Source of the DNA: an uncultured Acidobacteriota bacterium
GTDB taxonomy: Bacteria > Acidobacteriota > Terriglobia > UBA7540
Reading direction: 5' to 3'
Assembly (NCBI GenBank): GCA_963804995.1
Contig: CAWDSK010000005.1
Location: 928,001-992,000 of the forward strand
Length of the DNA stretch: 64,000 nt
The translations under genes and the position numbers were made by a program. The notes below the pieces were generated by a model. The model searched no databases and had not been told where the DNA came from. It was given only the letters and a program-made list of their open reading frames with translations. The stretch's first letter is position 1. Each line of letters opens with the position of its first letter. Of the stretch, positions 15,407-48,961 are shown one piece after another.

Positions 15407-15421
15407 ACGCGGCCCTTCGCG

Positions 15422-15751: not shown

Positions 15752-15767
15752 GCAGGGTGGGTGACCA

Positions 15768-16399: not shown

Positions 16400-16403
16400 T
16401 TTT

Positions 16404-17247: not shown

Positions 17248-17883
17248 CCAGACCTCCTCAGCGGTCGCTCGAACCCAAGCACCCACCATTCTATAACACC
17301 TTCCAGCCGGGAACTAACTGAACCTGCCCCAAATGCAGGAGCCACCCCCTATTCAGGGGCGCTGTGTGTTTCCCCCTGACACCTGGCACCTAGCACCTGA
17401 CACCCTGGCGGGGAGCGCCGACATTGCAGCCACAATTGACCGGAAGTTTGGCATCAAGGGAAAGGCCCACGGACATGAGGGCACGGTCCGTGCCTACCCG
17501 CTTTGCGTCTCGGCGCGAGTTTATATATTTTTTCACACCTTCAGTCGGCGATCTGCGCCTAAGTTGAATAGCCACCCCAATACGAGGGGCCGCACGCCGC
17601 GCTAAGCTGAGCGAGGCCAGACTCCGGCGTCCGCCAAAAGTCAACCAAGGGCGCCGTTGAATGGAGCGGGGACGCAACGGCGCTGGGGGGGAGCGATTGA
17701 CCAACTGTTCGAAATCCGCGACAACGTTGTTATGGTACCGCATGGACACCATAGATTCCCTCCGCTTTCCCAACCGGGCTCATATGGAGCTATTCCCGCG
17801 GGCTGCGCGTTCGCCGTCAAGTGAAGAACCCACAGTCAGAACTGCGTTGACTGAGCCTACCTGCTTTGCGCCGGCCCAACGGT

Positions 17884-19800: not shown

Positions 19801-19904
19801 GAGCCCCCCTTCGTATCAGAAGCTTGGAGCGGCTGGCGAGACGAAGTGCGGCTCTTCCGCCCACCCCGGCCTCTGTCGCTCGCGCTTCGTGCGCAAGTGT
19901 CAAA

Positions 19905-21167: not shown

Positions 21168-21399
21168 GTTCTCTCTCCTTAATGCTTGGAGGCATTGGCC
21201 TCGCAAGATTCGTTTAGCTGGGTGACCAGCTCGCCATCTGGGGATTGCCGCCAGTAGCTTTTCCTAACATACCATTAACTTCGATGTGTTGCAAGAGGTT
21301 TTCTTAGGGCAAACATAACGCGAACCCCTCCTCTAATTCCGCGGCCTCCTGCTTCAAATCCTCGCGTTCTCATCGGCTGGCAAAGGCACGCGGTCAATG

Positions 21400-21545
21400 G
21401 TCAGTTGGGGATTAGGGGTTGGGGGCAGTATGCAGGATACGGGAGACGGGATTCGGGACACGGGAAAAGGGAATCCCAAATCCTGACAGTAGACAGGAGC
21501 TAGAATTCGGGATTCAGGAAGCAGAAGGCAGTAGGCAGTAGGCGG
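21400..21545. repeat. Degenerate heptamer tandem repeats (STRR-like)
   Basis: GGGATAC/GGGAGAC/GGGATTC/GGGACAC and AGGCAGT runs. Confidence 0.7.
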
Positions 21546-21555
21546 TGCTACACGC

Positions 21556-21933
21556 TCAAAGGTCTGCGGGCAGAATCCCCATCGCCAGTACGACGCATCG
21601 GGCAATCTGGCCAAGTCTGGCAGCGCTTAGGGCTCGGAGCCGTGACCGCGAGGGTACCAAGCTTTCCTTCCTCACCGTGCTGATGTTCTCCGCTTGGGCC
21701 TCGGAAACCTCTCCCAAACCTGTCTCGCCAGGCTCCAGTCGGACGTGAGTGTCGAATCCGCGCAGAGTCGTCGATAGCGGCACCACCAGTACCGTGCTGG
21801 CTCGCGGATGCTGATTCCTGGCGTCGAGCGAGACAACGATCACGGGACGGGCATGCTTGTCAGGAGGATCCGAAGGTATTCGAACAAACCAAATCTCGCC
21901 GCGGTGCGGTTGAACAGGTTGGGGGATCGACAT
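21556..21933 (-). CDS. PemK/MazF family toxin
   Basis: RGEIWFV, RPVIVVS, VVPLST, TGL. Confidence 0.9.
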   Translation of the reverse strand: MSIPQPVQPHRGEIWFVRIPSDPPDKHARPVIVVSLDARNQHPRASTVLVVPLSTTLRGFDTHVRLEPGETGLGEVSEAQAENISTVRKESLVPSRSRLRALSAARLGQIARCVVLAMGILPADL

Positions 21934-21938
21934 AAGGC

Positions 21939-22247
21939 TTATTCCTCAGTATGAGCAAGTCCCAGCTCACCCAATCCTCCCCATGCCCGCTGCTCTTCCG
22001 TCTCGCGGGAGGATAAGGAATCGTAATAAAGTGCTGTGCGGGCGCCCAGCTTTTCGAGTTCGGCGCGGGCTTGGGCTTCCGCGACCAGCCGCTCGATAAA
22101 CGCGCTCACCGACGAGACTCCGGCTTGTCCGCGGTGGGCTTTGATAAAGCGGACTTTGTCCTTTGAGAGTGAAATGGTAATGCGCGCTTTTCCTGCGCCC
22201 TGAATGGTTGTATGACCGCGAGCGGCCCGGTCCTGTGGCATCTTCAT
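21939..22247 (-). CDS. RHH-type antitoxin
   Basis: ITISL beta strand, SAFIERL helix, YYDSL..EEQRAW tail; upstream of mazF. Confidence 0.8.
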   Translation of the reverse strand: MKMPQDRAARGHTTIQGAGKARITISLSKDKVRFIKAHRGQAGVSSVSAFIERLVAEAQARAELEKLGARTALYYDSLSSRETEEQRAWGGLGELGLAHTEE

Positions 22248-22254
22248 ACCCTCC

Positions 22255-22298
22255 GTATGAAATTAATTCATACTACTCGCAGCGCCGCGATGCGTCAA
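22255..22298 (-). promoter_or_regulatory. Promoter with palindromic operator for the TA pair
   Basis: Minus-strand TTGACG-17 bp-TAGTAT overlapping the palindrome GTATGAA-N5-TTCATAC. Confidence 0.65.
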
Positions 22299-22808
22299 GC
22301 AATCTTCCAGGACGGGCGGTTGGAGGAACGGCGCCCAAAAGGCAGTGGGCAGTAAGCGGTAGACAGGAGCTAGGAGTCAGGAGGCAGAAGGCGTCGCGCG
22401 CGGGGGTGCAGTCATATCGAATAACTCCATGTTGCCGCAAATTGACGAAGGCCGGACAACAGCAACAGATTTGTTGCTTTCATAAGGGCACGATAACAAA
22501 ACCTGTTGCTTGTCGGCAGTCTTCAGCCGTGGGTGGCGCATATGTTCCGCATTATGGGTGGTATGCGATCCCAAAGTTTGGAATCAAGGCAGGCTGGCGC
22601 AGGGCGAGCGCAGCCCTGCGATTTCTTCGAATCAAGCCAGCCGGTCCATGGTCAAGACGGACGAACCATTTAACAATGGAATTCGAAGCTTGAGGTGGCC
22701 GGGCTCGAAGTGGCGTCTATAGATCGGCACAATAGGAATATCGGCGAGTATAGTCAAAGGCGTGAATCGCAGAGCTGGGCTCGCTCTGCGCCAGCCTTAT
22801 CTTAGCCC

Positions 22809-23099
22809 TCAGCTCCGCACTTGTTTCGCTTCCTCTTGTTTCAGCCGCTCGGCCAGCAACACCTTGAGTAGAGACTGATAGGGAACATCACGCTGGTTGG
22901 CCAGGACTTTGAGCCGGGCGATCAGAGGTTCGGGCAAGCGCAGTGAAATGGTTCGGGTCGAAGGTTTCAGGTTGGGCAGCACAGCGCGTTGGGCTTTCGT
23001 CCAATCCAGGTAATCGCTTGAATCGTGGCTGGCCCAAAAAGCCCTTTCGTGCTCTGTGGACTTAAATTTCGGAATAACCTTCTTCTTCGGTTTGCTCAT
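22809..23099 (-). CDS. BrnA/CopG-type antitoxin
   Basis: IPKFKS..ERAFWASHD, TISLRLP, VPYQSLLK. Confidence 0.88.
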   Translation of the reverse strand: MSKPKKKVIPKFKSTEHERAFWASHDSSDYLDWTKAQRAVLPNLKPSTRTISLRLPEPLIARLKVLANQRDVPYQSLLKVLLAERLKQEEAKQVRS

Positions 23100-23103
23100 G
23101 GCT

Positions 23104-23382
23104 TTAATAGATTCTCCGTTCCTGGCGCGTCATGTCGCGCGCTGAAATCACGCGGATAAGTTTCCCTCGAAGGGTGAAGACCACAAACAGCCCGCGGCTT
23201 CGATCTGTCTGCCCCAGTGCATAGAACCTGGATTCTTCCTGGGAGGGTTCGAGGTCCCGGCGAACAACCATGGGTTGGTTAAAGAAAACCTCCTCGCACT
23301 CGGAGTCCGAGACGCGGTGCTTTGTCCAGTTCTTAACGGAGTTGCCCGGATCAAACCCAACGCAGTCAGTCCACGGATTCAT
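23104..23382 (-). CDS. BrnT family toxin
   Basis: KNWTKHRV, ECEEVF, VVFTLR, IRVISAR. The usual F-x-W-D motif appears shortened (GFDPGN). Confidence 0.85.
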   Translation of the reverse strand: MNPWTDCVGFDPGNSVKNWTKHRVSDSECEEVFFNQPMVVRRDLEPSQEESRFYALGQTDRSRGLFVVFTLRGKLIRVISARDMTRQERRIY

Positions 23383-23419: not shown

Positions 23420-24790
23420 CCAGAGGGAAACAAGTAGCCACGCAGTGAAGTCCTGCCCGTGGCCTTTTCTCCCGCCCGATGCCCAGTGGAAACTGACGGT
23501 GGCTAAGAGCTGACAGCTAACAGCCAACAGCTAACAGCCAACAGCTCTCAGCCCTCAGCTTTCAGCTCTCAGTTTTCTGTTGCAGCGCGGGTGTCCTCAC
23601 CCGCGTCTTCGCGGTAACGCGACACGTAAAACCCGGGTGGGGACACCCGGATTAGACGCAGGTGGGAACACCCGCGCTACAAGTTGACAGCTCACAGCCG
23701 ACCAATGGGACCTGGTCTAGGGGTTGGGGGTTGGGAATTTGGGATACGGGACACGGGTTACGGGGTTAGGGATTCGGGGTTAGGGATTAGGGGTTAGTGA
23801 CTCCTGGCTCCTGGCTCCTGGCTTCTGGCTCCTCACTCCTAGCTCCTGACTCGTAGCTCCTCTCACCCAGTCCCGAATTCCCAATCCCAAATCCCGAACC
23901 CCTAGTCCCCAGTCCCGAATCCCGTGCCCCGTTTCCCGTACCCCGAATCCCGTATCCCGAACCCCTAATCCCGAGTCCCGTGTCCCCTACCCCGTCTCCC
24001 GTTTCCCGGCCGCTGAGCCCTCCCCCCTCGGACATTATGGCCCCCGGGGGTGTCCCAGAAGTTGCTTTCCGCGGGGCATAGCGAGCGACGTTCCCACCAA
24101 AAAGCTCCAATGTGGGACTGGTAATACCTCGCACGGCGATGTCCGGACGCCCGGAGCATTCAGCCATGGTCACCCACCTGACCGACTTCGCCCCGCCCGT
24201 GACACGCACTCCCCTGAGCTGACAGCTCACAGTAAGTCCCCAGCCCCGAATCCCAAGTACCTAGGTCCCAGTCCCGAGCGCCGTATCCCGAACCCCTAAT
24301 CCCTCGTCCCCCGGTAGCCGGCCGTGACACACTACCCCGTATCGGTTATCGACGGATTGCTCCACGAACATGAGCCACAAATCGATATCGGGTTCGAAGA
24401 TCACTCGAACGGCTCGATGAACCGATGTACCGATGACCCGATCACCCGATGCATGAATTGCCCACCCCCCAACCGACATGACTCGGCCGCGACACACTCC
24501 CCCCTATCGGTGATCGGTGGGATCGACGCCAAGGATGAGGCAATTTGAGTACCCCGGAACCAACCGCTTGCCCCCTCACCCGGCGCGCCCCGGCTGGTAA
24601 AAGCGCCGGCAGCGCGCCACCCTTATCCGCCACGGCGGAGCTGCGACCCCTCGGAGAGGGCTATGCATCTTCACCTTGTGCTGATATACCCATGGACCGA
24701 TGGCCCACCCCCCAACCGACCTGATCCGGCCGTGACACACTACCCCATATCGGTGATCGGTGGGTTGTCTCACGAGCATGAGCCCAACTT
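23420..24790 (-). repeat. Composite repeat block (REP triplet, heptamer tracts, GTGACACACTACCCC repeats); inverted relative of 36385-37200
   Basis: REP hairpins at 23582-23680; heptamers at 23505-23575 and 23720-24000; three copies of GTGACACACT..TATCGGT(T/G)ATCG near 24324, 24490 and 24732. Confidence 0.8.
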
Positions 24791-32254: not shown

Positions 32255-32670
32255 GCCTCTCTACGGGTAACAATTGGGACATCCGGGGCCTGACCAATCC
32301 GCCTAGTCGGGCATTTTGTGGGGCAGGTTATGGTGGGACAAAGCTGGGACGGCCTTGCTGAGATTCGGACTCTATGGCGTGGCTGGCGGGGTCGGCAGGA
32401 TCAATTCCAGAGTCAGAGGCGGAATCTCAGACCTGGGAATCTGGTAGTGTCCTAGTTTGGAAAAATGCCCCACGTGCCCCCTCACCCGTCCCGCCCCGGC
32501 TGATGAATACGCCGGCGGCGGTCCACCCTCTCCCCTCGGAGAGGGCTGTTATTCACGGTGGGGTGCTCCATCGGCATATGCAGAAGATAGGTCTCCAATT
32601 CGGCCAGTGGGCGCTTCGATATAACTTTCCCGTGGCCGGAACTACCCTGAAATAATAGCCTTCTCCCCAG

Positions 32671-34375
32671 GAGCTTGTGACTTTTTGGGTCACCAGTGAG
32701 GGGGGATGGGTGGGGGGAGGAGGCAGAAAATCGGGAGCGGAGGTACGGAGAGAGAAAAAAGCTGGCGGTTGGGTCGGTACTTGTATTAATATAAATGTTA
32801 TGGACAACGTTTTACATTCAGATGATTTTAAATTAGGAATGGAACCGGCGGTAGGTCAGGAAGCGGAAGGAAAGGAAGAGAAGGGCGCGAAGGGGGCAGC
32901 AGAGCGGCGCGGGGCGGTGCGTTTGCGCCGGCCGGAGCGCCAGCAGATGGCCTGGGTGGCGCAATGTCCGGACGATCTGGTGGGGCCGGGGCACGGGGTG
33001 CGGCGGGTGGCGGCGGTGGTGGAGCGCTTGGACTTAGCGGCGTTCCGCCTGCCGATCAAGGCGCGGGAAGGAGGGGCTGGACGGGACGCGACCGATCCCC
33101 AGCTTTTAGTGTCGCTGTGGTTATACGCCTGTGTGCGGGGCATCGGTGCGGCGCGCGAACTGGCGCGGCAGTGCCAGGAGCATGCGGCCTTTCGCTGGCT
33201 GTGCGGAGGGGTGACGGTGAACCACCGTTTGCTGTCGGACTTTCGCACCGATCACGCCGAGGCCTTGGACACCCTGTTCACGCAAGTGATCGCTGCTCTG
33301 GTGGATAAAGGAGTGGTGAAGGTCAGCCGCATCAGCCAGGACGGAATGCGGGTGCGGGTGGGGGCGGGGAAGAAGAGTTTTCGGCGGGAAAGGCGGCTGG
33401 AGGAACTGCTGGGGGAAGCGGAACGGCACGTGGCGGAGTTGAGACGGCAACTGGAGTCGCCGGAAGGAGCGGGGCTGAGCGCGCGGCAAGCGGCGGCGCG
33501 GAAGCGGGCGGCGCAGGAGCGGCAGAAACGCCTGCAGGAGGCGATTGCGCAACTGCCGGAGCTGCAACGCCGGCACACCGCAAGGGTAAAGCGGACGGGG
33601 GGAAAACGGGGCCAGGAGATTGCGGCGCAGCCTCCGCGGGTGAGCACGACGGATGCGGAAGCGCGCATCATGAAGATGCCCAACGGGGGCTACGACCCGG
33701 CGGTGAATGTGCAGTTGGCGGCGGACCCGGAGAGCCGCGCCATTGTGGGGGTGGAGGTGAGCGCGGAAGGTTCGGACTCGGGAGGACTGAGCGCGCCGCT
33801 GCGGGAACAGGTGGAACAGCGCACGGGCGGGAAGGTGGAAGAGCACTTGTTGGACGGCGGGTACCTGCGCAAGGAAGACTTGGAAGCGGCACACGCGCAG
33901 GGCGTGGCGCTGTTCATCCCGCCGCACACGGCGCAAAATCGTCAGAAGCGGGGGAAGGAACTGGAGCCCCAGAAGGGCGACAGCGAGGCCGTACGAGAGT
34001 GGAAGCAACGCATGAAAAGTGAGGAGGGAAAGAAAATCTATCAGCAGAGAGCGGCGACGAGTGAAACCGTCAACGCCGACTTGCGCACCTATCGCGGTTT
34101 GGGCCGCATCCTGGTGCGCGGGCTGGCCAAGGCACGCTGCGTGGCACTGTGGTGCGCCCTGGCTTACAACGTGATGCACTTCGCGCCCCTGTTGCTGGGC
34201 TAACCAAGCCCTGCCCAGCCGTACCGGGCACGGGTGTAGGGCGGATTCCCCCGGTACTCCTTGCCGCGCGGCACCGCTCCACCGGCCAAGGGGAGCCCTC
34301 TCGCGCACTTCCCAAGCTGCCCACTACCTGACCCGCCCCACCGCGTAACGGTGGCTTCGAAAAAGTCACAAGCTC
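32671..34375 (+). mobile_element. IS1182-family insertion sequence
   Basis: IRs GAGCTTGTGACTTTTT / AAAAAGTCACAAGCTC with a CAG direct repeat; single transposase ORF. Confidence 0.9.
32800..34203 (+). CDS. IS1182-family transposase
   Basis: LVSLWLYA, NHRLLSDFR, QDGMRV, STTDAEARIMK, LLDGGY, YQQRAATSETVN. Confidence 0.9.
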   Translation: MDNVLHSDDFKLGMEPAVGQEAEGKEEKGAKGAAERRGAVRLRRPERQQMAWVAQCPDDLVGPGHGVRRVAAVVERLDLAAFRLPIKAREGGAGRDATDPQLLVSLWLYACVRGIGAARELARQCQEHAAFRWLCGGVTVNHRLLSDFRTDHAEALDTLFTQVIAALVDKGVVKVSRISQDGMRVRVGAGKKSFRRERRLEELLGEAERHVAELRRQLESPEGAGLSARQAAARKRAAQERQKRLQEAIAQLPELQRRHTARVKRTGGKRGQEIAAQPPRVSTTDAEARIMKMPNGGYDPAVNVQLAADPESRAIVGVEVSAEGSDSGGLSAPLREQVEQRTGGKVEEHLLDGGYLRKEDLEAAHAQGVALFIPPHTAQNRQKRGKELEPQKGDSEAVREWKQRMKSEEGKKIYQQRAATSETVNADLRTYRGLGRILVRGLAKARCVALWCALAYNVMHFAPLLLG

Positions 34376-34651
34376 CAGGGGAGAAGGTGGCTGACGTAGG
34401 AGGCCGGATGAGGGGTTACTTACACACTCAGGGCGTCGAAACAAGTTACAACCTATAAATTCAAAAACCATTAGCCCGGCGCTACGTCAAACTAGGACAC
34501 TACCGGGAATCTGTGAGGATTGTAGTAGGGTCTATCGGCCCCGAAGTGTCAAGGGCTATACACCACGGCCGGGCGCAGGCAGGGCAGAACTGAACTCAAG
34601 CTCGACCAGACTTCCTCCGGACGCCGCGGATTCAGCGGAACTCCATCTCGA

Positions 34652-36384: not shown

Positions 36385-37200
36385 GGCAGGTCGGTTGGGG
36401 GATTGGGCCATCGGTCCATGGGTTCATCAGCACAAGGTGAAGATGCATAGCCCTCTCCGAGGGGAGAGGGTGGCGCGCTGCCGGCGCTTTTACCAGCCGG
36501 GGCGCGCCGGGTGAGGGGGCAAGCGGTTAGTTCCGGGGTACTCAATTTGCCTCATCCTTGGCGTCGATTCCACCGATAACCGAAGTGGGGCAGTGTGGCA
36601 CGGCGGGGGCAGGTGTCGGTTTGGGGATCGGAGCGTCGGCTCATCGATCCCTCGATTCGTCGGCTGATCCGCTCATCGAGTCATGGCGTGATCTCGCGAT
36701 CTGGCGATTGCGTGATTGTGAACCCACTGCCGATTTTTGGGCTCATGTCCCCGTGCCAACCTACCGATTACCGATACGGGGCAGTGTGTCACGGCGGGGT
36801 TAGGGGGACGAGGGGTTCGGGCTAGGGATTCGGAGTTCGGGATTCGGGGCGGGGCGAGAGGAGCTAGGAGGAGTCAGGAGCTAGGAGTTAGGAGTCAGTA
36901 GCCCAAACCCTAACCCTAACCCTAACCCTAACCCCTAGGCCCCCTGTCCCATCTGTCAGCTGTCGGCCGTTAGCTATCACTTGCCATCTGTCTGCTGTGA
37001 GCTGTCGGCTTGTAGCGCGGGTGTCCCCACCCGCGCTTTACGTGTCTCGTTGCCTCGGAGACGCGGGTGAGGACACCCGCGCTACAAGCGATCTGATAGC
37101 TGAGAGCTGAAAGCTGAAAGCTTTTCCTCAGCACCATGCCTCATCCCGATTGACCACATGCAGTTGCCGCTGGGGTATCGGGCAGAGAAGCCCCTCGCCC
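36385..37200 (+). repeat. Composite repeat block including (CCCTAA)4 and GTAG-REP unit 1 of the array
   Basis: Reverse complement of much of 23420-24790; REP doublet at 37012-37085 followed by a conserved tail. Confidence 0.8.
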
Positions 37201-37235
37201 TTGACTCGCCGTGCATACAAATGCATGCTCAGTAA

Positions 37236-37301
37236 ATGGAGATCGTCTGGGACCGCGCCAAAGCGAGGCAAAACGTGGCGAAGCACGGCGTGCGGTTTTA
37301 A
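37236..37301 (+). pseudogene. Truncated BrnT toxin (21 codons)
   Basis: MEIVWDRAKARQNVAKHGVRF then a stop; preceded by TTGACT-17 bp-CATGCT. Confidence 0.8.
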
Positions 37302-37303
37302 GC

Positions 37304-37558
37304 ATGAAAACCTACGAATTCAGTAAAGGAAAACGCGGACCGGTGCTGCCCGTGCCACCCGGCAAGGAACGCATCACCATTCGCCTGGACACCGACATTC
37401 TGGAATATTTCCGGGACGCGGTGGAGAGCGCCGGGGGCGGTAATTATCAAACCTTGATCAACAACGCGCTGCGCGCCTATATCGAGGGTGGACAGAAGCC
37501 CTCAATCGAGGAAACGCTCCGGCGGGTGATCCGCGAGGAACTGCGGACCGCGCCCTGA
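37304..37558 (+). CDS. BrnA antitoxin
   Basis: YEFSKGKRG, ITIRLDTDILEYF, NYQTLINNALR. Confidence 0.88.
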   Translation: MKTYEFSKGKRGPVLPVPPGKERITIRLDTDILEYFRDAVESAGGGNYQTLINNALRAYIEGGQKPSIEETLRRVIREELRTAP

Positions 37559-37659
37559 GGGGGCGGGATTGGGGAGCTGGGGGCCGGGATACGGGGCTCG
37601 GGATACGGGATTTGGCGATCCTGAATCTAGAATCTCAAATCTGGAATCGAAACTCGGAA

Positions 37660-37930
37660 CTGGCTGTCGGCTGTGAGCTTGTAGCGCGGGTGTCCCCACC
37701 CGCGTCGAATCCGGGTGTTCCCACCCGCGCTTTACGTGTCTCGTCACCTCGAAGACGCGGGTGAGGACACCCGCGCTACAACCAATCTGATCGCTGAAAG
37801 CTTCTCTCCAGCACCATGCCTCAACCAGATTGACCACATGCGTTTGCCACGGGGTGCAGGGCATGAGAAAAGCCCCTGGTCACGACGCCACTGAACGTGG
37901 CTTTTAGCTACCCGCGTATTCCCTGTTTGC
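37660..37930 (+). repeat. GTAG-REP unit 2 of the array
   Basis: GTAGCGCGGGTGTCCCCACCCGCG..CGCGGGTGAGGACACCCGCGCTAC (37681-37779) plus the tail CAGCACCATGCCTCA..GATTGACCAC..GAAAAGCC. Confidence 0.85.
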
Positions 37931-37976
37931 GTGCTTAGCCAGTCTGCGATATCCTCTCGCCCCGAGACACGCTCCT

Positions 37977-38237
37977 ATGCCTGAGACCGACAAAATTCTC
38001 ATCCAGGTTTTGCGCGGACAGTCCGACGCCAACCTGCGCTTTGCGGACCTCAGAGGATTACTTCAGCGGCTGGGCTTCGTTGAGCGAATTCGCGGCAGTC
38101 ATCACATCTTCTGGAAAGAGGGCGTCGAAGAAATTCTAAACCTCCAGCCCAAGGGGGGCAAAGCCAAACCCTATCAGGTGAAGCAGGTCCGGCATGTTAT
38201 ACTCAAGTACAAGTTGGGAGGCGGTTTAGATGCCTAA
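37977..38237 (+). CDS. hicA: HicA family toxin
   Basis: LGFVERIRGSHHIF, KAKPYQVKQV. Confidence 0.9.
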   Translation: MPETDKILIQVLRGQSDANLRFADLRGLLQRLGFVERIRGSHHIFWKEGVEEILNLQPKGGKAKPYQVKQVRHVILKYKLGGGLDA

Positions 38238-38439
38238 GTACGAAGTCATCATCTATTGGAGCGAGGAGGACAAGGCCTTCATCGCCGAAGTGCCGGAACT
38301 TCCCGGCTGTGCGGCCGATGGCAAGACCTATCGGGAAGCCCTCGCCAACGTAGAAGTGGTCATCCAGGAATGGATCGAAACCGCCCAGGAACTCGGCCGC
38401 TCCGTCCCCGCCCCCAAGGGCCGATTGGTGTTTGCCTAA
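38230..38439 (+). CDS. hicB: HicB family antitoxin
   Basis: YWSEED, AEVPELPGCAADGKT. Confidence 0.9.
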   Translation: MPKYEVIIYWSEEDKAFIAEVPELPGCAADGKTYREALANVEVVIQEWIETAQELGRSVPAPKGRLVFA

Positions 38440-38620
38440 CTGGCCCGGTTGACTTTCAAATTGCTTCTTTCCGTTCTTGATAACTTAAAACTGACAACTA
38501 AAGACCTTTTTCTGCTGTCGGCTGGTAGCTTGTAGCGCGGGTGTCCCTACCCGCCCTTTACGTGTTTCGTCACCTCGAAGACGCGGGTGAGGACACCCGC
38601 GCCTGGAGTTTCTACATTTA

Positions 38621-40000
38621 TTATGCATCAGCGGCGTGGGTGAGGGCGCGGTCGGTGAGTTGGAAGCCCAGAGATTGGGGACATTCCGGGTGGTCGACCA
38701 TTTCTTGGCGCAGCAGGGTGACGAGGTCGAGGCAGGAAGGGCGGTGGGCCTTGCGTCGCCACCGGGGCAGAGCCTGATAGGCCGTGCCACGCTCGGTGCC
38801 GAAGGCTTGGAGAGAAGCCAGGAGCAGCGCGCTGTAGGCGGCCACGACCAGGGCAGGTTGCTTGGGCACGGCGTTAACGTTCCATAACTGGGCTTGTCCG
38901 ACACCCAGCGTCTCCTTCTCGTCGCGGTGGTTGACTTCGATCTGCCAGCGGTCGAAGTAGATTTGCAGCAACTGAGGGGCAGAGTGCCGCAGGTCGGTGG
39001 TCAGCAGGTAGGCCGGTTGACGGTAGTAGAGTCTGGAGCTCTTCCGTTTGCGATAGGGGGTAGGAGCCACGACGAAGAGCCGCAGGGGGATCTGGCCGGC
39101 GCCCCGACGCCAGTAGACTTGCGACACCTCTTTATAACGGAGGCGGCGGCGCTTGCCTCCGTAGAAGAGCTTGGTTTGCTGCCAGAGGTGGGACTCGTCC
39201 TGCCGGACCTGTTCGGGGGTAAAGGTGGAGAGGGCGTAAAAGCGGCGAGAAGGCTGGGGAGCGCGAAAGCCGAGGCGCGCATCCTTGCGGGCGCGGGCGA
39301 TCAACTCGGTGCGATCGCGGGGGGCGCGCAGACAGGTGCGGTTGCAGAAGCTGCCATCCAGAGCCAGCACCAGCAGCTTGGCCCCACCCCCGGCCGCATC
39401 CAGCGCCTGGCGCAAGGGGGCCACGCTCTGCACAAAACGCTGCGAGAGGTTGTGGAGCTTGCGCATCCTTTTATATTCCTGCCAGGCTTCCTCTTTCGCC
39501 TTGCGGGAGGGCTTTTTCAGCGGCGCCGCCTCTTCAAAGCGCACGGGCAGAGCGCGGCAGCTGGCGGGGGCGTACCGATGCAGGGGCAGCAGCAGGGAAG
39601 CTTGCAGAAAGCGCACGCCGCGCAGGAGGTTGACATGAAAGGGGGGCGAGAGGGGATCGCGGTGATAACGCGCCTGGGGAATGGCGCGGCCGGTCTTGCG
39701 CAGGCGGGTGTCGTCGACGGCCACGCCCACCAGGCGGCCGGGACAATAGGGCAAGGCGCGGCGCCAGACGCCGGCAAACAACGTCTGCGGTTCCCAGTGA
39801 CAACGCGAGTGGAGAAAGTATTCGCTCGACCAACTGCGCTGCTGGCGGCCCTGGGTCCAGAGGATACGCGAAAGACAGCGTCGACCCACGCAGACCAAGG
39901 CGCCCAGGGCCTGGCGCACGGCGCGCTGCAGGGTGCGCTGCTGGGGAAAAGTGGGGGCCCAGTCCGCCACGATCTCCGACCAGGCGGCGAACAGAGTCAT
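38621..40000 (-). CDS. DDE transposase (IS701-like)
   Basis: VAVDDT, LALDGSF, YFDRWQIEVNHRDEK. Confidence 0.88.
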   Translation of the reverse strand: MTLFAAWSEIVADWAPTFPQQRTLQRAVRQALGALVCVGRRCLSRILWTQGRQQRSWSSEYFLHSRCHWEPQTLFAGVWRRALPYCPGRLVGVAVDDTRLRKTGRAIPQARYHRDPLSPPFHVNLLRGVRFLQASLLLPLHRYAPASCRALPVRFEEAAPLKKPSRKAKEEAWQEYKRMRKLHNLSQRFVQSVAPLRQALDAAGGGAKLLVLALDGSFCNRTCLRAPRDRTELIARARKDARLGFRAPQPSRRFYALSTFTPEQVRQDESHLWQQTKLFYGGKRRRLRYKEVSQVYWRRGAGQIPLRLFVVAPTPYRKRKSSRLYYRQPAYLLTTDLRHSAPQLLQIYFDRWQIEVNHRDEKETLGVGQAQLWNVNAVPKQPALVVAAYSALLLASLQAFGTERGTAYQALPRWRRKAHRPSCLDLVTLLRQEMVDHPECPQSLGFQLTDRALTHAADA

Positions 40001-40332
40001 CGGGCCTCCGGACGTAAGCCGAAAGTGTTCTTCCCGGTACGCAGGAAGCGATCGCCGCGGGCGACTTTTTTGGTCAGCGAAGAGACCAGGCTCTCGCGAT
40101 CGACGGTGACGTAGAAGGCGGCGCGGAGGCGCGCCAGGAGTTCGGAAATGTGCAAGGGGGTACGGGCCTTCTTGAGTATGTCGTACGCCATGTCCACTTG
40201 GGACAGACCTGTGCGGCGCGGCCTCGGGGCGGGGGCTGGGGAACCGCCGCGGAGACGGCGAACCGCCCGCAACTGGGCATCCAGTGAGGCCTCGAATATC
40301 GAAAGAATGGAATCCTTGAGATCGTCAGGCAA
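39997..40332 (-). CDS. Small winged-helix accessory protein of the IS
   Basis: Lies inside the IRs, overlaps the transposase start; AYDILKKARTPLHISEL..FLRTGKNTFGL. Confidence 0.7.
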   Translation of the reverse strand: MPDDLKDSILSIFEASLDAQLRAVRRLRGGSPAPAPRPRRTGLSQVDMAYDILKKARTPLHISELLARLRAAFYVTVDRESLVSSLTKKVARGDRFLRTGKNTFGLRPEAR

Positions 40333-40605
40333 GTTAACCTCCGGAGCCAGGACTCAGGAGGAAGGTAACGGAAATCAGGTCGGTCTGTCAATAGAAATAT
40401 TACTTTGCCAGACCTAAATGTAGAAACTCCAGACGCGGGTGAGGACACCCGCGCTACAACCAATCTGATCGCTGAAAGCTTCTCTCCAGCACCATGCCTC
40501 ATCCAGATTGACCACCTGCGTTTGCCACGGGGGCATTGGCATAAGAAAAGCCTATAGTCACAACTATGCGGACGGTCGACCGCTAATCAATCTTTGCCGC
40601 GGAAT

Positions 40606-41574
40606 TCACCAGTGCTTGGGGTCGTCCTTGAACTCGCTGTCCTCTAATTTCCTCAGTTCCGAAAGGCTTCCCGCCGCTTGGGACTTGACCATCTTCCACA
40701 CCTCGGCAAAAGCCTGTCGTGATAGATTAAGTTTCATGCCATCGGACCAATTTACCCACGTCTTCGCACTGATACGGCCGCTCCGTCTCAGAAATACTTG
40801 CTCATTAGATAGGTCCAAATAGTGGTAGATTCCATCCATACACTTAGAGAATTCGTCTGGAGTCAACGTCTGGCCCAGGAGCGCCTTGACGGGGATAGTC
40901 TTAAGGATTTCTCTGTATTGGTGCGATAGCCCATCCTCGAAAGCGGTTATGCTCTGTCTCTTGCTCAGCCAAATTTGCCAGCCAACGAAAATAACGCCGA
41001 GCGCTGTTGCGCATGATCCAATTGCCTGCCAGTTCATGATAGTAATCCTCAACTTGTAATCGTGGCCGTGCGGATACGTTGCGCTCAAGGCCAGACAGGT
41101 CAAGCAAAGCCACGCGATAAAGAAGAGCGAGGGCACCAACCGCATCAACCAACGGTAACTCGGCCAATCCACCCGGTGGATCTTGTAAAGCTCCGCAGCG
41201 TTGTTGTCATATTTGCTCGCAAAGTTCCATTTCGGTAAATCGGATTTTGTGTTCGATGTGGAATCCGAGGTAAGCGATTCCTTTTCAATTTGTTGGATCG
41301 CCGCCCACCAATAGTCAATATAGGATTGTACCTTCTGGTCGTTTCTAATCCAGACTCCAGTCAGGGCAAGTCCAAATGCGCAGGCAATAATGCCAAGAAA
41401 GTTGTTGCAGCCATCTAGGATTACCTTGCCAACACCAAGTAGTAGGGCCGTCTCAAACGCAGCGAAATAGTTTGTTCGGTGCCAGCCAGAATCTACCTGG
41501 AATCGCCAAGTTTCAAACAACAGGCGATATATTCCCAACGTCTCGGTTCGGTTCCGTTCTTGATCGGGCGTCAT
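40606..41574 (-). CDS. Multi-TM membrane protein, apparently a fusion of two small domains
   Basis: N-terminal half W..RTNYF with TM helices (RipA/SLATT-like resemblance). C-terminal half begins MNWQAIGS with one TM and a helical domain (AFED..QYRE..YLDLSNEQ). Confidence 0.65.
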   Translation of the reverse strand: MTPDQERNRTETLGIYRLLFETWRFQVDSGWHRTNYFAAFETALLLGVGKVILDGCNNFLGIIACAFGLALTGVWIRNDQKVQSYIDYWWAAIQQIEKESLTSDSTSNTKSDLPKWNFASKYDNNAAELYKIHRVDWPSYRWLMRLVPSLFFIAWLCLTCLALSATYPHGHDYKLRITIMNWQAIGSCATALGVIFVGWQIWLSKRQSITAFEDGLSHQYREILKTIPVKALLGQTLTPDEFSKCMDGIYHYLDLSNEQVFLRRSGRISAKTWVNWSDGMKLNLSRQAFAEVWKMVKSQAAGSLSELRKLEDSEFKDDPKHW

Positions 41575-41590
41575 GCGGTATTCCTGCTTG

Positions 41591-42043
41591 CTAGTTATCC
41601 AACAACGCTCCACTATCAAATTCGCTTGAAGCCTTGCGGCGGGCTGCAACGAGCCGCGCCCTAAGATCCTCAGGAATCACTGCACAAACAAACTCAATTT
41701 CTTTTGGTACGCGGCCTCCTGCTACCTCCTTTTGGCACTGGTCGAACATGTCAGGCTCCGTAAGAACGATGACCCGGCGCTTTGCCTCGACCAAGGTCAA
41801 AAAGAGCATGTCGGATCGTAGCTTCAGGATCTTGCCGACGGCGTGCTTTCCTCCCGAAGTCTTGGCGCCACTGGTTGAGACAGTGGCGACGATGGAGCGG
41901 TCTTCGCTTACTGCGTCAAAATCAAAGACCCCACCAGATCGGAGCGGCAGGCGCTCCCGCGAGAACTTGGTTCCAAAGTGCGAAAGCATCCAGTTACGCC
42001 TTACCCAGTCTTCCACTTCAACTTGAACGCGGGTATCTGCCAT
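41591..42043 (-). CDS. Small restriction-endonuclease-fold-like protein
   Basis: VEDWVR..FDFDAVSED..IVATVSTS..K pattern resembles PD-(D/E)xK folds; family uncertain. Confidence 0.5.
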   Translation of the reverse strand: MADTRVQVEVEDWVRRNWMLSHFGTKFSRERLPLRSGGVFDFDAVSEDRSIVATVSTSGAKTSGGKHAVGKILKLRSDMLFLTLVEAKRRVIVLTEPDMFDQCQKEVAGGRVPKEIEFVCAVIPEDLRARLVAARRKASSEFDSGALLDN

Positions 42044-42225
42044 TTGTTGCCCCCTCTGGCTACCTCCTCCTCAGGATCGCAAGAACAATGCCGACCACGA
42101 TCAGTCAAATCAGAAATGAGAAATGCACACGGCCAGATTACGACTGACCGCGGCCGATTGCTGGAAGAGAGTCCCCTCGGGAGATCGCAGACGCTAAGAT
42201 GCAACCGTCTCGCCCGCCCGTTTGC

Positions 42226-44650
42226 TCATGGCACCCTGCATTCAAGGGATTTGCGAAAAGCCGGGTGAATACAATAGCAGAACTGTTGAAGCCCGCTCTT
42301 CATCTTCTGCACGTTATGTTCGAACTGGTACGAATACCGTTCCCGATCATCTGGGTAGGTATAAATACCTAGAAAACCGAACCATAGGAGGAGGTCTTTT
42401 ACCTTGTCCACATCCTCCATCCTGATACCTGCCTCCGCAAGCGCTATTGAAACATCTGAGGGGGTAAGCTGAGCCAATGACCCTATGAACGCATACGTCG
42501 CATTTCCAAATTCCGGCTTTACATCCTTCAACTCAAAGCTAAGATCAACCAGTGCGTCCTCGGAGTACGATCTTTCCGCCGTACAAATGTCGTCCTCAAG
42601 CACTAGTTCATGGCCCCTATTCACTGCCACGTTGATGCAGTCTCTCATAAACCGCAAAACCTCGCGGGGCCGCATGAGGGTCCTTTCAAGAATGTACGAG
42701 AAGGATTCTTCGCCTGATACATGGCTTACAAAGAAGAGTCTCCATAGCTCGTCAAAACTCTCGTCAAGTCCCGTGCTTAGAACGATCCTTCTTCTTAGCA
42801 TTTCCTTGAGCGTTTCCGGGTCGTTCCAATCTAGCAGGGCGGCATTGTCCTTTCCTCGGTCGGCCGGGTCGACTATTAGGTGGTCATATATGTCATTTCT
42901 CAGGAAAACCACGGCATGCAAGTCAACGGACCGGCTTTCGAATTGCCGTTGCAGTTTTCTAGTTGCCTCAAGCAAACTCTTAATTAGGGAAATGTCTTCA
43001 TTCTTCACGTCGAATATCGGCCATCCTTTATCCAAATTGTCGAATAGAAGCCAAATATCCTCCTTCCTGCTCGCGCGCACGAATTCTCCTATGGCATCAT
43101 TGAGTGGTCGGATGTCCTTTCGGTAGATGAGTTGGGTCACCTCAGCTGCCGCACCCACCTTTCCGATCGAATCTTTTCGTTTCAGGATCTCGTCAACGAG
43201 TGCCAAGAGGCGCTCAGAAAAATCACCTTGCTCTGCGCCCGAGACAGAGTAGGTTTCGTAAGCCGCCCGGGTCGCCTCGTAAGCTCCCCGGAGGCGTTCG
43301 TCACGATATGATTGCGGCTCCTCGAAATGAACAATCTTGTGAGCAATTTCCATTAACAACAGGTAATTCCAGAATGCCGTAAGGACATGCATTTGTAAAC
43401 CGGGCGAAAGGTCCTTTAGGACGGTCTCGCGCAATTTAGTAAACTGATGACCCTCCGGTTTCAAATCTAGAACCAAACGCGACCGCTCCTGTGAGTATGC
43501 AGCACGAATCCCGTAGAAGATGGCTGTCTTTCCGGCTCCCTTCCGACCCACGACCAGCCTGGCGTGCCCGCGCTTGGCCTCGTTGTATTGCCCAGTAGGG
43601 ACGAAATAGGAGCGGAGCGCAAGGATTCTCGTTTTCCGCCGCCAAGTCTCCCAGGTCAACCTTCTCGAGGGGGGTCAAGGGAAGAGACGTGGGAATGAAA
43701 CGGCTGTCCTGTAGCATCCCTACAACCGACTTAATGAATGGAATTATTAGGTCGGGTATTGCCTTCGGAGTCTTGTAGCAACGGATTACGTCCCGATAGT
43801 CGATCGGCTGCGTAACTTGGGTTTCCTGCAACATCAGGACATGCTTCCCTGCGGCCATCGCTAGCCCCGCTACAAAGGAGCACCGTGAATTGTGGGGAAT
43901 GTAGCCGGCGCGATTTGGAGCCATCAAGTGGACCACGACACCAAGCGACGACTGAACCTGTTTGAAGGCCTCGTGCAACGAAAGACGAGCCGACTCCCTT
44001 GGATCGAATGCACGGAATCGGAGCCCGGACTTCTTCAACGCGGACATTAAACGTACCATTCCCTCGCTTTGAATCGGACTCTTCATGAGATAAAGGGGTT
44101 GCTCTTTGTTTATGGGAGGCCCCTGGGGCAAGGCGAGACTGGGTGCTGGCTTGGTGAGAAGCTCGTTTGCTATTTCCAACGAGTTTTGGAAGTCGAAGTA
44201 TCCCAGAGTATCGATTAGCCCCAGTTCTGCGAAGGTCCTGGCGTCTTGTATGTATGATGTGTCACGGATTGGAAGGACAGGGATGCCGAGACCGATTGCG
44301 TAACCTATTTCGAACAGAAGATTGAAATTCAATGTTGTCACATCGGCTACGATGAACCTCGTGAAACGCATGCCCTTGCAAATTTGGCAAAAGATTATTT
44401 GGCCAGAAACTCCAAGGTCCTTCCATCCCAGCCAGTTCTTATTGCCTGCAACAGCTTTCAGGCGCCTTAAGGCTTCTTCAATGGTGCTCGCGATAATCTG
44501 GGGTTCGGCCGGATATAGGAATAGCGCGTCTGAGCGGACTGTGTTCTCAAAGGATTGGTCGCAAGGACCGGCGGCATACTCGCAAAAAAGTGGTGGCTGC
44601 GCGATTAACGGCAACTGCATGTTCGGCAGGCTCGAGGACATCCGACACAC
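42226..44650 (-). CDS. NDT/TIR-like domains fused to a P-loop ATPase (Sll1717-like), frameshift near 43625
   Basis: IVADVTTLNFNLLFEIGYAIG. DLGDLAAENE continues as LRSYFV in the next frame, then GRKGAGKT, LFDNLD, FLRNDI, RPRE. Confidence 0.8.
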
Positions 44651-47257: not shown

Positions 47258-48961
47258 TCAGGGGGGGAGCCCGATGCGGTCAAGCAGGTTACGAAAGCGA
47301 GCCGAGTGTGCGAGGGGTTCAAACCTTGGGTCGCAGTTGAGGAAAACCAGAAGCGGGTCGTGCTGCTCGTAGGCCTTTTCGATGCACCCCAAAGTGCATT
47401 CGTTGTTTCCCAGGTGGACCGCCGCCTGCGCCAGGAAGATGTAACGCACGTATTGTTGTTTGCTCAGGGTGGCCAACTCTTCCAGCAGGCGCTCCGCGGA
47501 CGTTCGTCGCCCCGCCAGGGCATAGACAGAACAGAGCGTTGAAGTAAAGATGGTCTGGCTCCTGGCGAGGGCTCTGGCCTTCTCGCAATGGGTAAGGGCG
47601 TGAGCGAAATCGCCCTTTTGTGCCAAGCACACCCCCAGCATCATGTGAATCAGGGCCGTGGAGGGATCATGGCTCAGTAGCTTTCGGCAAACCTCGATGG
47701 CCAGATCGTAACTCCGGGCGAGGATTCCCAGAACGGCCAGCGCCGAGCCGATTACCGGCGACAGGGGGTCGAGCCGCAACGCCTGTCTCAGCTCCTCGGC
47801 GGCCTCGTCAGGCCTAAAGACAACCAAGTGACACGCGGCCAGGAGCATCCACGCGCTTCCATCGCTGGAATTAAGCTCGATGGCGCGCCGGCAACTGGCC
47901 TCGGCTTCCGGCCAGTTCCAAGCGCCGAAGAGGTGCCATGCCGCCAGCGCGGCATGGGCGCGGCAGAGCTGCGGATCCAAATCCAAGGCCTTCAGGGCAA
48001 GTTCCCTGGTTGCCCACAACGCGGCGGCGGGTGGATAGTCGTACCAAAAGGCCAGACGAAACCAGGCCGTGGCGAGTTCGGCGTACGCGGGAGCACAATT
48101 CGAGTCGATGGCAACCGCCCGGCTGAAAACATCAAGGCTCTTCTTGATATCCGCCTCCGACCACTGGAAAAGCAGGGTCCCTGAAAGGTAGGCATTATGG
48201 GCCGCCGGGATCCAGGTGGTCTGCGGATGCGGGTTCTGCGTAATAGGCAAGCCGAGCTTGGCTGACAGGGCGCCAGCAAGTTCCCGTGCCAACCCTTGCT
48301 GGAGTGAAAATAAAGCCGGGAGCTGGATTTCAAAACTATCTGCCCAGACTTGGGCCTGGTCGCGCGCCGCAATGAGTCGTGCGGTCAGGCGGACCTGCCG
48401 CCCGTGCCAGCGCAATCCTCCCTCCATGACGTAATCCACGCCTAATTCCTTCCCGATTTGCTCGATGCTTTTCGCCAATTGCTTGTAGTACACGACCGAG
48501 GTGAAACCGATGACCCGGAGATGTCCCGGACTCAGTTGGCCGAATTCGGAAATGACTTCATCGGTGAGGGCGTCCGCAAACGTTCCCTTCGCAGGATTGC
48601 TCGTAAAGTTTCTGAAGGGAAGGACGGCAATCATGATTGGCCGCCCTGAGGAGGGTTCGTGTTTTGTAATCCCAGCGAGTGCTGGCAAAAGCCCTGAGGT
48701 GAGGGGCCCCGGGCCATGACCCGTACTTTCCGCCCTCCTGCGACTCTTTAGCCAAGCATCAATCTTATCGGTGAAGGCATAGACTGTTTCTTTCTTATGA
48801 TGCAGGTGACGGCGGACCGGCAGACCCTCCGCCCGCTCCCAGCGGCGGACCGTCCGCGGGCTGCGCTTCAGATAGGCCGCAATTTCCTTCCAGGAATCGA
48901 GTCGCAGTCCGGGGGCGGGAGTGACAATGCTCGGCTCCGGGGACGTTCCTGCGTTTGACAC
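47258..48961 (-). CDS. MerR/excisionase-like HTH + TolB-like + TPR regulator
   Basis: RLDSWKEIAAYLKRSPRTVRRWE, IAVLPF, TPR repeats, C-terminal DPRFEPL. Confidence 0.85.
   Translation of the reverse strand: MSNAGTSPEPSIVTPAPGLRLDSWKEIAAYLKRSPRTVRRWERAEGLPVRRHLHHKKETVYAFTDKIDAWLKSRRRAESTGHGPGPLTSGLLPALAGITKHEPSSGRPIMIAVLPFRNFTSNPAKGTFADALTDEVISEFGQLSPGHLRVIGFTSVVYYKQLAKSIEQIGKELGVDYVMEGGLRWHGRQVRLTARLIAARDQAQVWADSFEIQLPALFSLQQGLARELAGALSAKLGLPITQNPHPQTTWIPAAHNAYLSGTLLFQWSEADIKKSLDVFSRAVAIDSNCAPAYAELATAWFRLAFWYDYPPAAALWATRELALKALDLDPQLCRAHAALAAWHLFGAWNWPEAEASCRRAIELNSSDGSAWMLLAACHLVVFRPDEAAEELRQALRLDPLSPVIGSALAVLGILARSYDLAIEVCRKLLSHDPSTALIHMMLGVCLAQKGDFAHALTHCEKARALARSQTIFTSTLCSVYALAGRRTSAERLLEELATLSKQQYVRYIFLAQAAVHLGNNECTLGCIEKAYEQHDPLLVFLNCDPRFEPLAHSARFRNLLDRIGLPP

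Follow-up and report, generated by a model that had tools for sequence, protein, structure and literature searches.

How do toxin–antitoxin (TA) modules come to alternate with copies of a direct repeat where no integrase is found? The window, that is, the whole stretch of 64,000 nucleotides analysed here (its genome is called G000), raises this question. A sequence-only reading had pointed to three direct-repeat units with TA modules between them, the last unit split by an insertion sequence (IS), and to the lack of an integrase. All of this was borne out: the units start at 37010, 37679 and 38530, the third is interrupted by an IS701-like element, brnA, hicA and hicB pass their Pfam cut-offs, brnT' is a stub, and 0 of the 12 IntI matches in the genome reach the TIGR02249 cut-off. 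The features of the window are the following.

22809..23382, minus strand: brnT (PF04365) and CopG-type antitoxin gene (PF12441)
23433..23682, minus strand: fourth copy, with REP-A doublet, heptamer filler and a short diverged REP-B piece
37010..37087, plus strand: REP-A doublet of unit 1 (inverted GTAG-REP pair; second repeat family, nested)
37136..37200, plus strand: tail of unit 1, a RAYT 3' remnant with the REP-B hairpin deleted, adjoining the brnTA -35 box
37236..37301, plus strand: brnT' stub of 21 codons, lacking about 205 bp that intact homologues have
37304..37558, plus strand: brnA antitoxin gene (PF14384, above Pfam cut-off)
37560..37678, plus strand: heptamer-repeat filler, present behind brnA in relatives too
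37679..37782, plus strand: REP-A doublet of unit 2, long hairpin (unit z-score -7.2)
37816..37915, plus strand: tail of unit 2, RAYT 3' remnant, decayed REP-B hairpin and terminus
37977..38237, plus strand: hicA toxin gene (PF07927, above Pfam cut-off)
38230..38439, plus strand: hicB antitoxin gene (PF15919, above Pfam cut-off)
38530..38602, plus strand: REP-A doublet of unit 3, left part
38603..40432, minus strand: IS701-like element of 1830 bp inside the REP-A arm, with a 22-bp target duplication
40433..40460, plus strand: right REP-A arm of unit 3, duplicated
40494..40578, plus strand: tail of unit 3, RAYT 3' remnant and decayed REP-B
40606..44650, minus strand: accessory block adjoining unit 3, with an 8xMP gene, an unassigned gene and an Sll1717-type ATPase (two overlapping frames)

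In each unit, two repeat families, REP-A and REP-B, are combined with the heptamer filler into a chimera. The GTAG doublet and the conserved tail, of which the earlier reading had composed the unit, are both present. The tail, however, is itself composite: by sequence comparison we could show that it consists of the 3' end of a gene for a REP-associated tyrosine transposase (RAYT), reading as the C-terminus of that enzyme, and of the gene's right REP (REP-B), a worn copy of a non-autonomous element of about 185 bp that we call REPIN-B. The working part of the unit is this tail, and the GTAG doublet, REP-A, is a later passenger. Units 1 and 2 are 91% alike in the 91-nt doublet family, unit 2 agrees with unit 3 in 125 of 135 tail positions, and the REP-B copies in the window are 5'-truncated and decayed. 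Tail 1 resembles a hybrid of the local unit and a brnTA-linked remnant. At G000:C6:1377285-1377487 there is a further near-complete unit, matching unit 1 at 93%, whose neighbour is a Crp-type gene and not a TA module. The inverted fourth copy that had been proposed does carry a REP-A doublet, but in place of the conserved tail it holds only a short diverged piece of REP-B; in G043, the homologue of the brnT/CopG pair has a remnant and REP-B directly upstream, too. A gene block indeed adjoins unit 3, where a defence operon had been suspected, but PADLOC returned one weak match for it (3.8e-5) and no downstream unit bounds the block. At gathering score, Rfam gave no match in the window, L030, L232 or L054. 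A sigma-70 scan of 36900-38600 missed the TA promoters, whose -35 and -10 boxes were assigned by eye from the alignment.

REP-A was considered as the cassette site and rejected. It is near-absent from the cassette-bearing relatives, with 0 or 1 match in G022, G023, G043, G001 and G013, where the same cassettes carry REP-B, and it is rarely found near TA genes (2 of 28 loci outside the window lie within 500 bp of one). No RAYT flanked by REP-A was detected among a sample of 14 Y1 loci in G000, and none adjoins REP-A in 36 REP-A loci, one Y1 gene lying about 1.6 kb from a REP-A copy.

The parents of REP-B were found in G002, G007 and G044, where intact RAYT genes are flanked by REP-B on both sides. 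The enzyme shows the motifs DHWH and YMHRNP (the HUH motif and the Y-x-x-x-NP signature) and matches E. coli TnpA-REP (4ER8) at 2e-12, and one parent passes NCBIfam NF047646 with 93 bits against a cut-off of 80. Inverted GTAG-REPs stand at both ends in 10 of the 10 intact RAYT loci listed. A 631-bp parent with REP-B ends is present in one genome as two copies of 97.8% identity with unrelated flanks and no target duplication. A further pair, 96.8% alike, has unrelated flanks within one genome as well and ends at the other CT. From these within-genome copy pairs we infer that the parent RAYT is neither single-copy nor domesticated and behaves like an IS. Additionally, the alignments allowed us to show that one internal deletion of the parent gave the derivative of about 185 bp that is now genus-wide. 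At the deletion junction, 43 of 44 copies have a spacer of 2 nt; a CT-to-CT join as its origin was rejected, as 13 of the 13 parents listed have no CT at the gene-side junction. At the right terminus of REPIN-B, conservation extends as far as a CT (C 77%, T 69%), past which the sequence is random (n=101), and the intact element folds end to end (z=-5.05). REPIN-B has the make-up of a REPIN, being a multicopy, intergenic hairpin of an inverted REP pair with no enzyme gene. REP-B matches occur in 20 of 28 relatives, copies of one (short) subfamily have a median identity of 0.93, and those within one array are 73-98% alike. In G000 (assembly 92% complete) we detected no intact cognate RAYT for REP-B but only fragments, and the nearest intact Y1 proteins there are 39-42% identical to it.

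A comparison of the genomes established that REPIN-B arrays alternate with TA or defence cargo at unrelated loci across the genus. Arrays of 3-6 copies with Pfam-confirmed TA cargo are found in G000, G001, G005, G013 and G022, and L354, a separate metagenome contig, holds a three-copy array around the same brnTA. The cargos found again in other genomes number at least 11, with 86-99.7% identity (core genes 76-92%) and with breakpoints at the repeat. Shared segments reach 99.7% for G005/G013, 98.7% for G000/G013, and 98.0% and 93.6% for G013/G001; the core genes are 76-90% identical, or 89-92% for G005/G013. Measured in this way, the identity of the cargo between species exceeds that of the core genes, and the cargo usually starts at the right terminus of the element, often together with the next element. 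None of 23 shared-flank pairs has both flanks in common (0/23, leaving out one duplicate of the same DNA and one pair due to an IS110 insertion). The DUF4160-DUF2442 cassette starts immediately 3' of the terminal CT in the genomes of four species at 94-99% identity, behind four different upstream elements with an exact upstream match of 14-21 bp only; the REP-B element upstream of the G021 copy is of a different kind. In the parDE and DUF4258 pairs the cargo is 98% identical, and at least 2 mismatches fall within the 9 bp preceding it on the upstream side. The downstream element accompanies the cargo right up to the element's last bases. Finally, trmD and rimM, at most 350 bp apart in 28 of the 28 other genomes, are split in G005 (1 of 29) by a 6.8-kb six-copy array. 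The idea that TA and defence cassettes travel with a REP unit under a RAYT acting in trans thereby finds partial support, in cassette-precise sharing across the genus and in empty and filled trmD-rimM sites, but the repeat that had been named was REP-A and should have been REP-B.

Around the window itself the flanks are poorly conserved among relatives, and synteny yields no empty site. Among the nine best matches to the flanking Gfo/Idh/MocA gene, the one in G013 has an array of its own with different cargo, and 8 of the 9 are without REP-B. Public sequencing runs do not match the window closely, the best share being 0.09, and the contigs of four runs, which covered pieces of the window, contained no clean cassette-skipping joint.

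Genome-wide scatter of the repeat with no enrichment next to TA genes had been named as the outcome that would speak against cassette movement. The repeats are indeed scattered, most of the roughly 107 REP-B elements in G000 adjoining ordinary genes, yet they are enriched near TA genes: REP-B lies beside 18 of 112 TA blocks versus 60 of 1924 small non-TA blocks, a five-fold enrichment. The latter blocks are the better control because a long-ORF-stop control is biased to operon interiors. The TA set comprises 132 of 135 matches to seven Pfam families, with three split duplicates dropped, and misses other TA families. The remnant neighbours scanned in G000 are mostly ordinary genes (TA-type, 13 of 89), and the difference between clustered and solitary REP-B near TA genes is not significant (7/37 vs 9/70, p=0.29). 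Two signals were left unused, namely a weak foreign base composition of the flanks (GC 0.578 vs 0.585) and a slight bias to small genes beside remnants (33% vs 23% at 150 aa or below).

We read the window as a decayed REPIN-B/TA array and consider it somewhat more probable than an even chance that the modules recurring in the genus were excised and inserted at the element by the cognate RAYT acting in trans. The RAYT would bind the REP hairpin on single-stranded DNA and cut between C and T in the right ends of two co-oriented REPIN-B copies. The cut ends would be joined to a circle of cargo and one REPIN, which would then insert next to a resident copy, at its right end, and in this way lengthen direct-repeat arrays. 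TA modules would be favoured as cargo because they are compact, have a promoter of their own and are hard to lose. In the window units, REP-A and the IS would have settled later, and the array looks decayed. TnpA-REP cuts and rejoins between C and T, including at sites in the inverted REP, according to the available text of two reports (PMC8266576, PMC3333891). Strand transfer by RAYT at CT sites in REP ends is likely here as well; as far as the terminus logo and the end positions go, they are consistent with cleavage and rejoining between C and T by the parent. More tentatively, with a chance that we place a little short of even, the RAYT and its miniature derivative may form an integrase-free cassette system, in which the right REP end would act as a single-stranded DNA recombination site and the excision and insertion of cargo plus REPIN by the HUH enzyme, at the C|T of that end, would feed a horizontally exchanged TA/defence pool shared across the genus. 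This would be a host-relevant function of RAYTs and REPINs. The excess of convergent over divergent REPIN-B pairs (14 vs 4) is not explained by the proposed mechanism. Also counting against it are the merely fragmentary cognate RAYT of G000, the many cargo homologues that lack REP-B (numbers below), the mostly ordinary neighbours of the remnants, the similar closeness of clustered and solitary copies to TA genes, the enrichment of other repeat families near TA genes, a likeness among REPIN copies that suffices for homologous recombination, and an internal deletion that is no CT-to-CT join.

The cargo could also be exchanged by homologous recombination, with selfish REPIN-B copies as portable homology between which RecA would swap or insert DNA, the RAYT merely seeding copies. 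On this view the 185-bp copies are more alike between species than core genes; the median of 0.93 in the short subfamily fits, as about 93% suffices, and so do the flanking elements partly common to both genomes in some pairs, the lack of an intact cognate RAYT in G000 and the hybrid look of tail 1. We nevertheless regard this as unlikely, given that identity falls at the terminus (as in the parDE and DUF4258 pairs), that the exact upstream match in G021 spans 14-18 bp only and that the element downstream comes along up to its final bases. Quite improbable, in our view, is a mere pile-up, in which REPINs, ISs and TA modules insert independently in the same tolerant islands, the alternation arises by chance and nothing moves as a unit. 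It can draw on the dozens of repeat families in the genome, several others of which are also enriched near TA genes, on GTAG hairpins of any family flanking 55 of 112 TA blocks versus 479 of 1924 small non-TA blocks, and on a TA island of more than 10 modules in G017 that has only three REP-B hairpins. Moreover, of the 70 homologues of 12 array cargos, 49 lack REP-B within 300 bp; one vapBC module has it near 0 of its 7 homologues, and the hicAB of the window near 1 of 9. The strain comes from the shared junctions: cargo and adjoining element are common to species at 94-99.7% at different loci with identical junctions, and REP-B-bound homologues make up 5 of 6 at 95% identity or above versus 16 of 64 below. 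A pile-up may still fit older, decayed parts such as the window.

Were the RAYT to use the outer ends of two REPINs, the entire REPIN-cargo-REPIN block would move, as in IMU-type MITE composites. The parent does move as a unit, converging arrays show outer ends on both sides, and REP-B stands on both cargo sides in both genomes in 8 of 70 cases; the upstream elements, however, are not alike in kind and length, either among the four DUF4160 copies or in the vapBC and antitoxin pairs, which leaves this reading a very small chance. Mis-joins at repeats in assembly or binning could create apparent arrays and sharing, all genomes being drafts or metagenome bins (several in 500-990 contigs) and no public run closely covering the window. 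We hold such an artefact to be extremely improbable: the shared segments differ by 0.3-14% and are therefore not one molecule, the arrays lie inside contigs of 377-1318 kb, their repeat copies are only 73-98% alike, and the brnTA array recurs in L354. Excision and insertion by the cognate RAYT remains our preferred reading.

Integrons and CALINs combine cargo with a downstream folded single-strand site in direct-repeat arrays, with TA-rich cargo and an inter-species cassette pool. The exchange of cargo plus downstream site described here works like such a cassette, which is a likeness and not membership. An attC core-site pattern was found on neither strand of the three units and one intact REPIN. 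Unlike in integrons, the sites are transposon ends, inverted copies occur in arrays, and most site copies are solitary. pdif modules show a repeat-gene-repeat layout with TA cargo, and ISCR/IS91 one-ended capture is HUH-mediated capture of neighbouring DNA. The present sites are not dif-like by their anatomy, which identifies the repeat as a RAYT end, and the enzyme is a short Y1 and not an IS91-type rolling-circle protein.

As far as the available text of the papers goes, REPtrons, REPINs and BIMEs with TnpA-REP/RAYT (Nunvar 2010, PMC2817692; Ton-Hoang 2012, PMC3333891; Corneloup 2021, PMC8266576; Bertels 2017, PMC5581495; Quentin 2018, PMC6006769) share with our elements the HUH-Y1 enzyme between inverted GTAG hairpins, the non-autonomous REP doublets and the ends cut between C and T. 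In the same portions, RAYT 3' ends caught between REPs are already known (PMC2817692), and the sequestering of flanking genes by REP units is only proposed (PMC3333891). The differences are that the parent here is duplicated like an IS and that the derivative punctuates whole TA/defence module arrays recurring between species at different loci; of the latter we found no description in the portions of the literature covered. The 170-aa enzyme lacks the C-terminal HTH extension that the available part of PMC6006769 describes for subclass 2.1. As in MITE composites (IMU) and TIMEs, gene-less miniature elements flank cargo and would rely on a transposase in trans. In the text available (Delihas 2011, PMC3184786), transposition of IMU duplicates 5 bp of target and takes both copies along; here the enzyme is of the HUH type, the parent ends show no target duplication, often a single copy travels, and the upstream copies differ. 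TIRtrons (TIRYT) have inverted repeats framing tyrosine transposase genes, with an Acidobacteria group named, and their TIRs are by definition not GTAG-REPs in the part of the source covered (Di Nocera 2013, PMC3733652), whereas the ends here are GTAG hairpins.

What RAYTs and REPINs do for their hosts, and how they move, is the wider question here; in the accessible part of PMC3333891, TnpA-REP cuts and joins REP DNA in vitro, and gene capture is proposed only. The genus supplies natural products with defined ends, namely the 631-bp parent, the 185-bp derivative and cassettes bounded at the right-end CT, and the idea can therefore be put to a direct test using one small enzyme and short oligonucleotides. 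Should RecA perform the exchange, the meaning would be more modest, a selfish repeat serving as portable homology between species. If the enzyme does it, an HUH nuclease would rank with integron integrases and Xer recombinases among the enzymes that build cassette arrays, and this would help to explain the more than 100 TA loci in these genomes.

The array in the window (G000:C5:928001-992000, G000 being the whole genome) contains three direct repeats at 37010, 37679 and 38530, with brnT'-brnA and hicA-hicB lying between them and an IS splitting the third unit, just as the sequence-only reading had described; it had also stated that there is no integrase, and no integron integrase scored over the cut-off in G000. 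The association of repeats with toxin-antitoxin (TA) genes is real, but that reading had taken the GTAG-REP doublet (REP-A) for the repeat linked to the cassettes, and this part has to be corrected: the repeat unit is a chimera of two repeat families. A BLAST search with unit 2 gave 43 loci in G000, in which doublet and tail matched mostly separate places, and the doublet marked 33 loci. The translated tail is the C-terminus of a REP-associated tyrosine transposase (RAYT), running into a second hairpin family, REP-B. In relatives, the same heptamer filler stands behind brnA and hicB and borders immediately on the remnant, with no REP-A in between, showing that REP-A entered the unit later. The genomes that display the cassettes best have no or one REP-A match, and outside the window only 2 of 28 REP-A copies lie within 500 bp of a TA locus. 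Two further REP-A copies (G000:C5:1262354-1264200 and 1268503-1270386) flank copies of another repeated gene, a 503-aa ORF, which is apparently a second IS inserted in REP-A.

Intact parents of the tail were found in relatives as genes of ~170 aa that carry HUH and Y-x-x-x-NP motifs and are flanked on either side by REP-B. One of these RAYTs passes the NCBIfam RAYT cut-off and also matches E. coli TnpA-REP; the parent enzyme has its closest relatives in records titled Terriglobia or uncultured Acidobacteriota. One genome carries two parent copies with 97.8% identity across exactly 631 bp, a span bounded by the two REP-B termini; their flanks are unrelated and there is no target duplication. 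A second pair places the end at the CT of the CTAC tail. REPIN-B, ~185 bp long, arose from the parent by one deletion of internal sequence, and in 43 of 44 copies the junction has the same 2-nt spacer. The element folds over its whole length (z = -5.05) and has matches in 20 of 28 other species. At the right end, conservation stops after a CT, past which the sequence is random (n = 101). We found no intact cognate RAYT in the G000 assembly (7.55 Mb in nine contigs, 92% complete). In the window, the REPIN-B copies have lost the left REP-B and their right hairpins are decayed. At four sites (G000:C6:540926-541001, C6:2030614-2030684, C3:1259655 and C6:1341293), an IS110-family element interrupts a REP-B right hairpin, each time at an identical base position.

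A cleaner array than that of the window is present in the same genome:

G000:C1:653-661 kb, REPIN-B array

Arrays with three to six copies also occur in the relatives G001, G005, G013 and G022 and on one metagenome contig; among the array loci are G013:C6:171-179 kb and G005:C8:246-253 kb. Their cargo consists mostly of TA modules (PIN, ParE, BrnT, DUF433, MNT-HEPN, DUF4160), together with some nuclease and ATPase genes. In G005 a 6.8-kb, six-copy array separates trmD and rimM, which are at most 350 bp apart in 28 of 28 other genomes. In G013, the best match to the gene flanking the window's array has a separate array upstream, with different cargo; eight other best matches of this gene have none. 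Neighbouring copies form 43 direct, 14 convergent and 4 divergent pairs, and several arrays read ++++-- or +++---.

Whole inter-repeat segments recur in other species, at different loci and in different order. G005 and G013 share 611 bp at 99.7%, G000 and G013 1040 bp at 98.7%, and G013 and G001 834 bp at 98.0% and 2009 bp at 93.6%, compared with a core-gene identity of 76-90% in the pairs tested and of 89-92% for G005/G013. For at least 11 distinct cargos, two or more genomes have a REP-B boundary at the same position. Of the pairs formed by 258 oriented elements, 23 share a flank and none shares both, in a test that needs 85% identity over 200 bp and thus leaves old vertical copies uncounted. 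In three pairs the downstream element is carried to its last bases together with the cargo. A DUF4160-DUF2442 module starts directly after the terminal CT in four genomes (G017, G021, G022, G044; identity 94-99%) and has a REPIN-B 3' of it in each; upstream, the exact match extends over only 14-21 bp and the elements are of different kinds. For the parDE and DUF4258 pairs, mismatches begin 6 bp upstream of cargo that is 98% identical. As for the cargo of the window itself, brnTA homologues at eight loci have no flanking genes in common, and six of these loci have REP-B within 300 bp; 3 of 11 close metagenome homologues are bounded on both sides, and one has the same sequence as a locus counted before. 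For the hicAB module, a link to REP-B is seen in only one of nine cases. Comparison of the genomes shows that REPIN-bounded cassettes are exchanged between species. In several genomes (loci L220, L222, L223, L225, L226, L231) the last codons and the stop of the parE toxin coincide with the REP-B terminus, so that the gene seems to have taken in the end of the repeat.

The sequence-only reading had held that genome-wide scatter lacking enrichment near TA or defence genes, together with an absence of cassette-precise polymorphism in related strains, would speak against it. Scatter is what we see, with 107 REP-B elements in G000, yet REP-B lies within 300 bp of 18 of 112 TA blocks versus 60 of 1924 small non-TA blocks (p = 7e-8), and the enrichment is real despite the scatter. 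Other repeat families in G000 have 0 to 16% of their copies within 500 bp of a TA locus. REP-B remnants cluster, 19 of 57 lying within 3.5 kb of another versus 2.9 expected; TA adjacency is not significantly higher for clustered REP-B copies than for solitary ones. Of 89 genes scanned next to REP-B remnants, 13 are TA-type; many other neighbours are housekeeping genes, for example citrate synthase and DnaE. The TA load of G000 is very high (121 loci from seven families, 59 PIN hits), and its intergenic repeat families number dozens, heptamer arrays among them.

Among homologues of 12 array cargos, 49 of the 70 lack a nearby REP-B, which speaks against a dedicated system, as does the absence of an intact cognate RAYT from G000. 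The association with REP-B is closest for recent transfers: it is found in 5 of 6 homologues at 95% identity or above versus 16 of 64 below, some of the top-identity cases having first been met via their arrays. Searches across the genus with array DNA brought up no unlinked copies that were closer. Because TA modules distant from REPIN-B are also common to other species (85-92%), and some modules sit behind other GTAG-REP families, TA modules move by several routes, with REPIN-B as one vehicle. Three loci in other species (L029, L041, L221) have the same TA promoters with other GTAG-REP families in front, hinting that several RAYT/REP pairs handle the same TA cargo. A second TA island (window 14847-23382) holds parDE, vapBC, two mazF modules, AIPR, a GHKL ATPase with weak type II restriction matches, and brnTA; relatives carry its modules at identities of up to 85-92%. 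A TPR-containing gene (window 47258-48961) is 93% identical to its counterpart in the relative G020, with a core gene at ~76%, suggesting transfer by a route unrelated to REP-B.

On single-stranded REP DNA, TnpA-REP cuts at C|T on either the 5' or the 3' side of the hairpin and carries out strand transfer (PMC8266576). It also cuts within inverted REP and recombines two such sites, and the authors suggest that such units could sequester whole genes (PMC3333891). If two co-oriented REPIN-B copies were cut at the right-end C|T, the cargo would be released with one REPIN while the other stays behind, and this unit, on insertion at the right end of a resident copy, would lengthen a direct-repeat array. 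The model predicts the observed unit of cargo plus REPIN, the CT-defined ends and the short upstream matches; the excess of convergent over divergent pairs is not accounted for. We infer that RAYT strand transfer at the right-end C|T rather probably exchanges the cassettes. Exchange by homologous recombination between REPIN-B copies, which are 93% alike, is the main rival, though an unlikely one. Elements and TA modules could also have piled up independently, which we regard as still less probable. Composite transposition is very improbable, and an assembly or binning artefact we consider hardly credible. The arrays are of neither the IMU type, as outlined in PMC3184786, nor the TIRtron type, as outlined in PMC3733652 and PMC6006769.

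The IS in unit 3 is an IS701-like element (window 38603-40432, 1830 bp) with six more copies in G000, 99-100% identical and located in palindromic repeats of several families. At the four sites with both ends read, the target duplication of ~19-22 bp is the whole palindrome. The element resembles an IS that targets hairpins and makes long target duplications. An IS1182 element (window 32469-34504) has three near-identical copies elsewhere in G000. Two overlapping frames at 42226-44650 (-), of 404 aa with a weak nucleoside deoxyribosyltransferase-like match and 477 aa for a Sll1717-type ATPase, look like parts of a single gene interrupted by a frameshift or sequencing indel. The ORF at 40606-41574 (-) joins an 8xMP domain (PF24838) in frame to a second membrane-anchored domain with a start-like sequence, and is possibly two fused genes.

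RAYTs, GTAG-REPs, REPINs and RAYT 3' ends caught between REPs are already known (PMC2817692). The function of RAYTs is treated as open (PMC5581495; 10.1101/2024.07.17.603846), and the latter source reports that no REP circles were seen in E. coli. Our search, which covered literature other than subscription journals and supplements, found no account of REPIN-punctuated TA cassette arrays exchanged between species. The feature functions like an integron cassette array but is no integron, and what the window holds is a decayed representative of a pool of REPIN-bounded cassettes that spans the genus.
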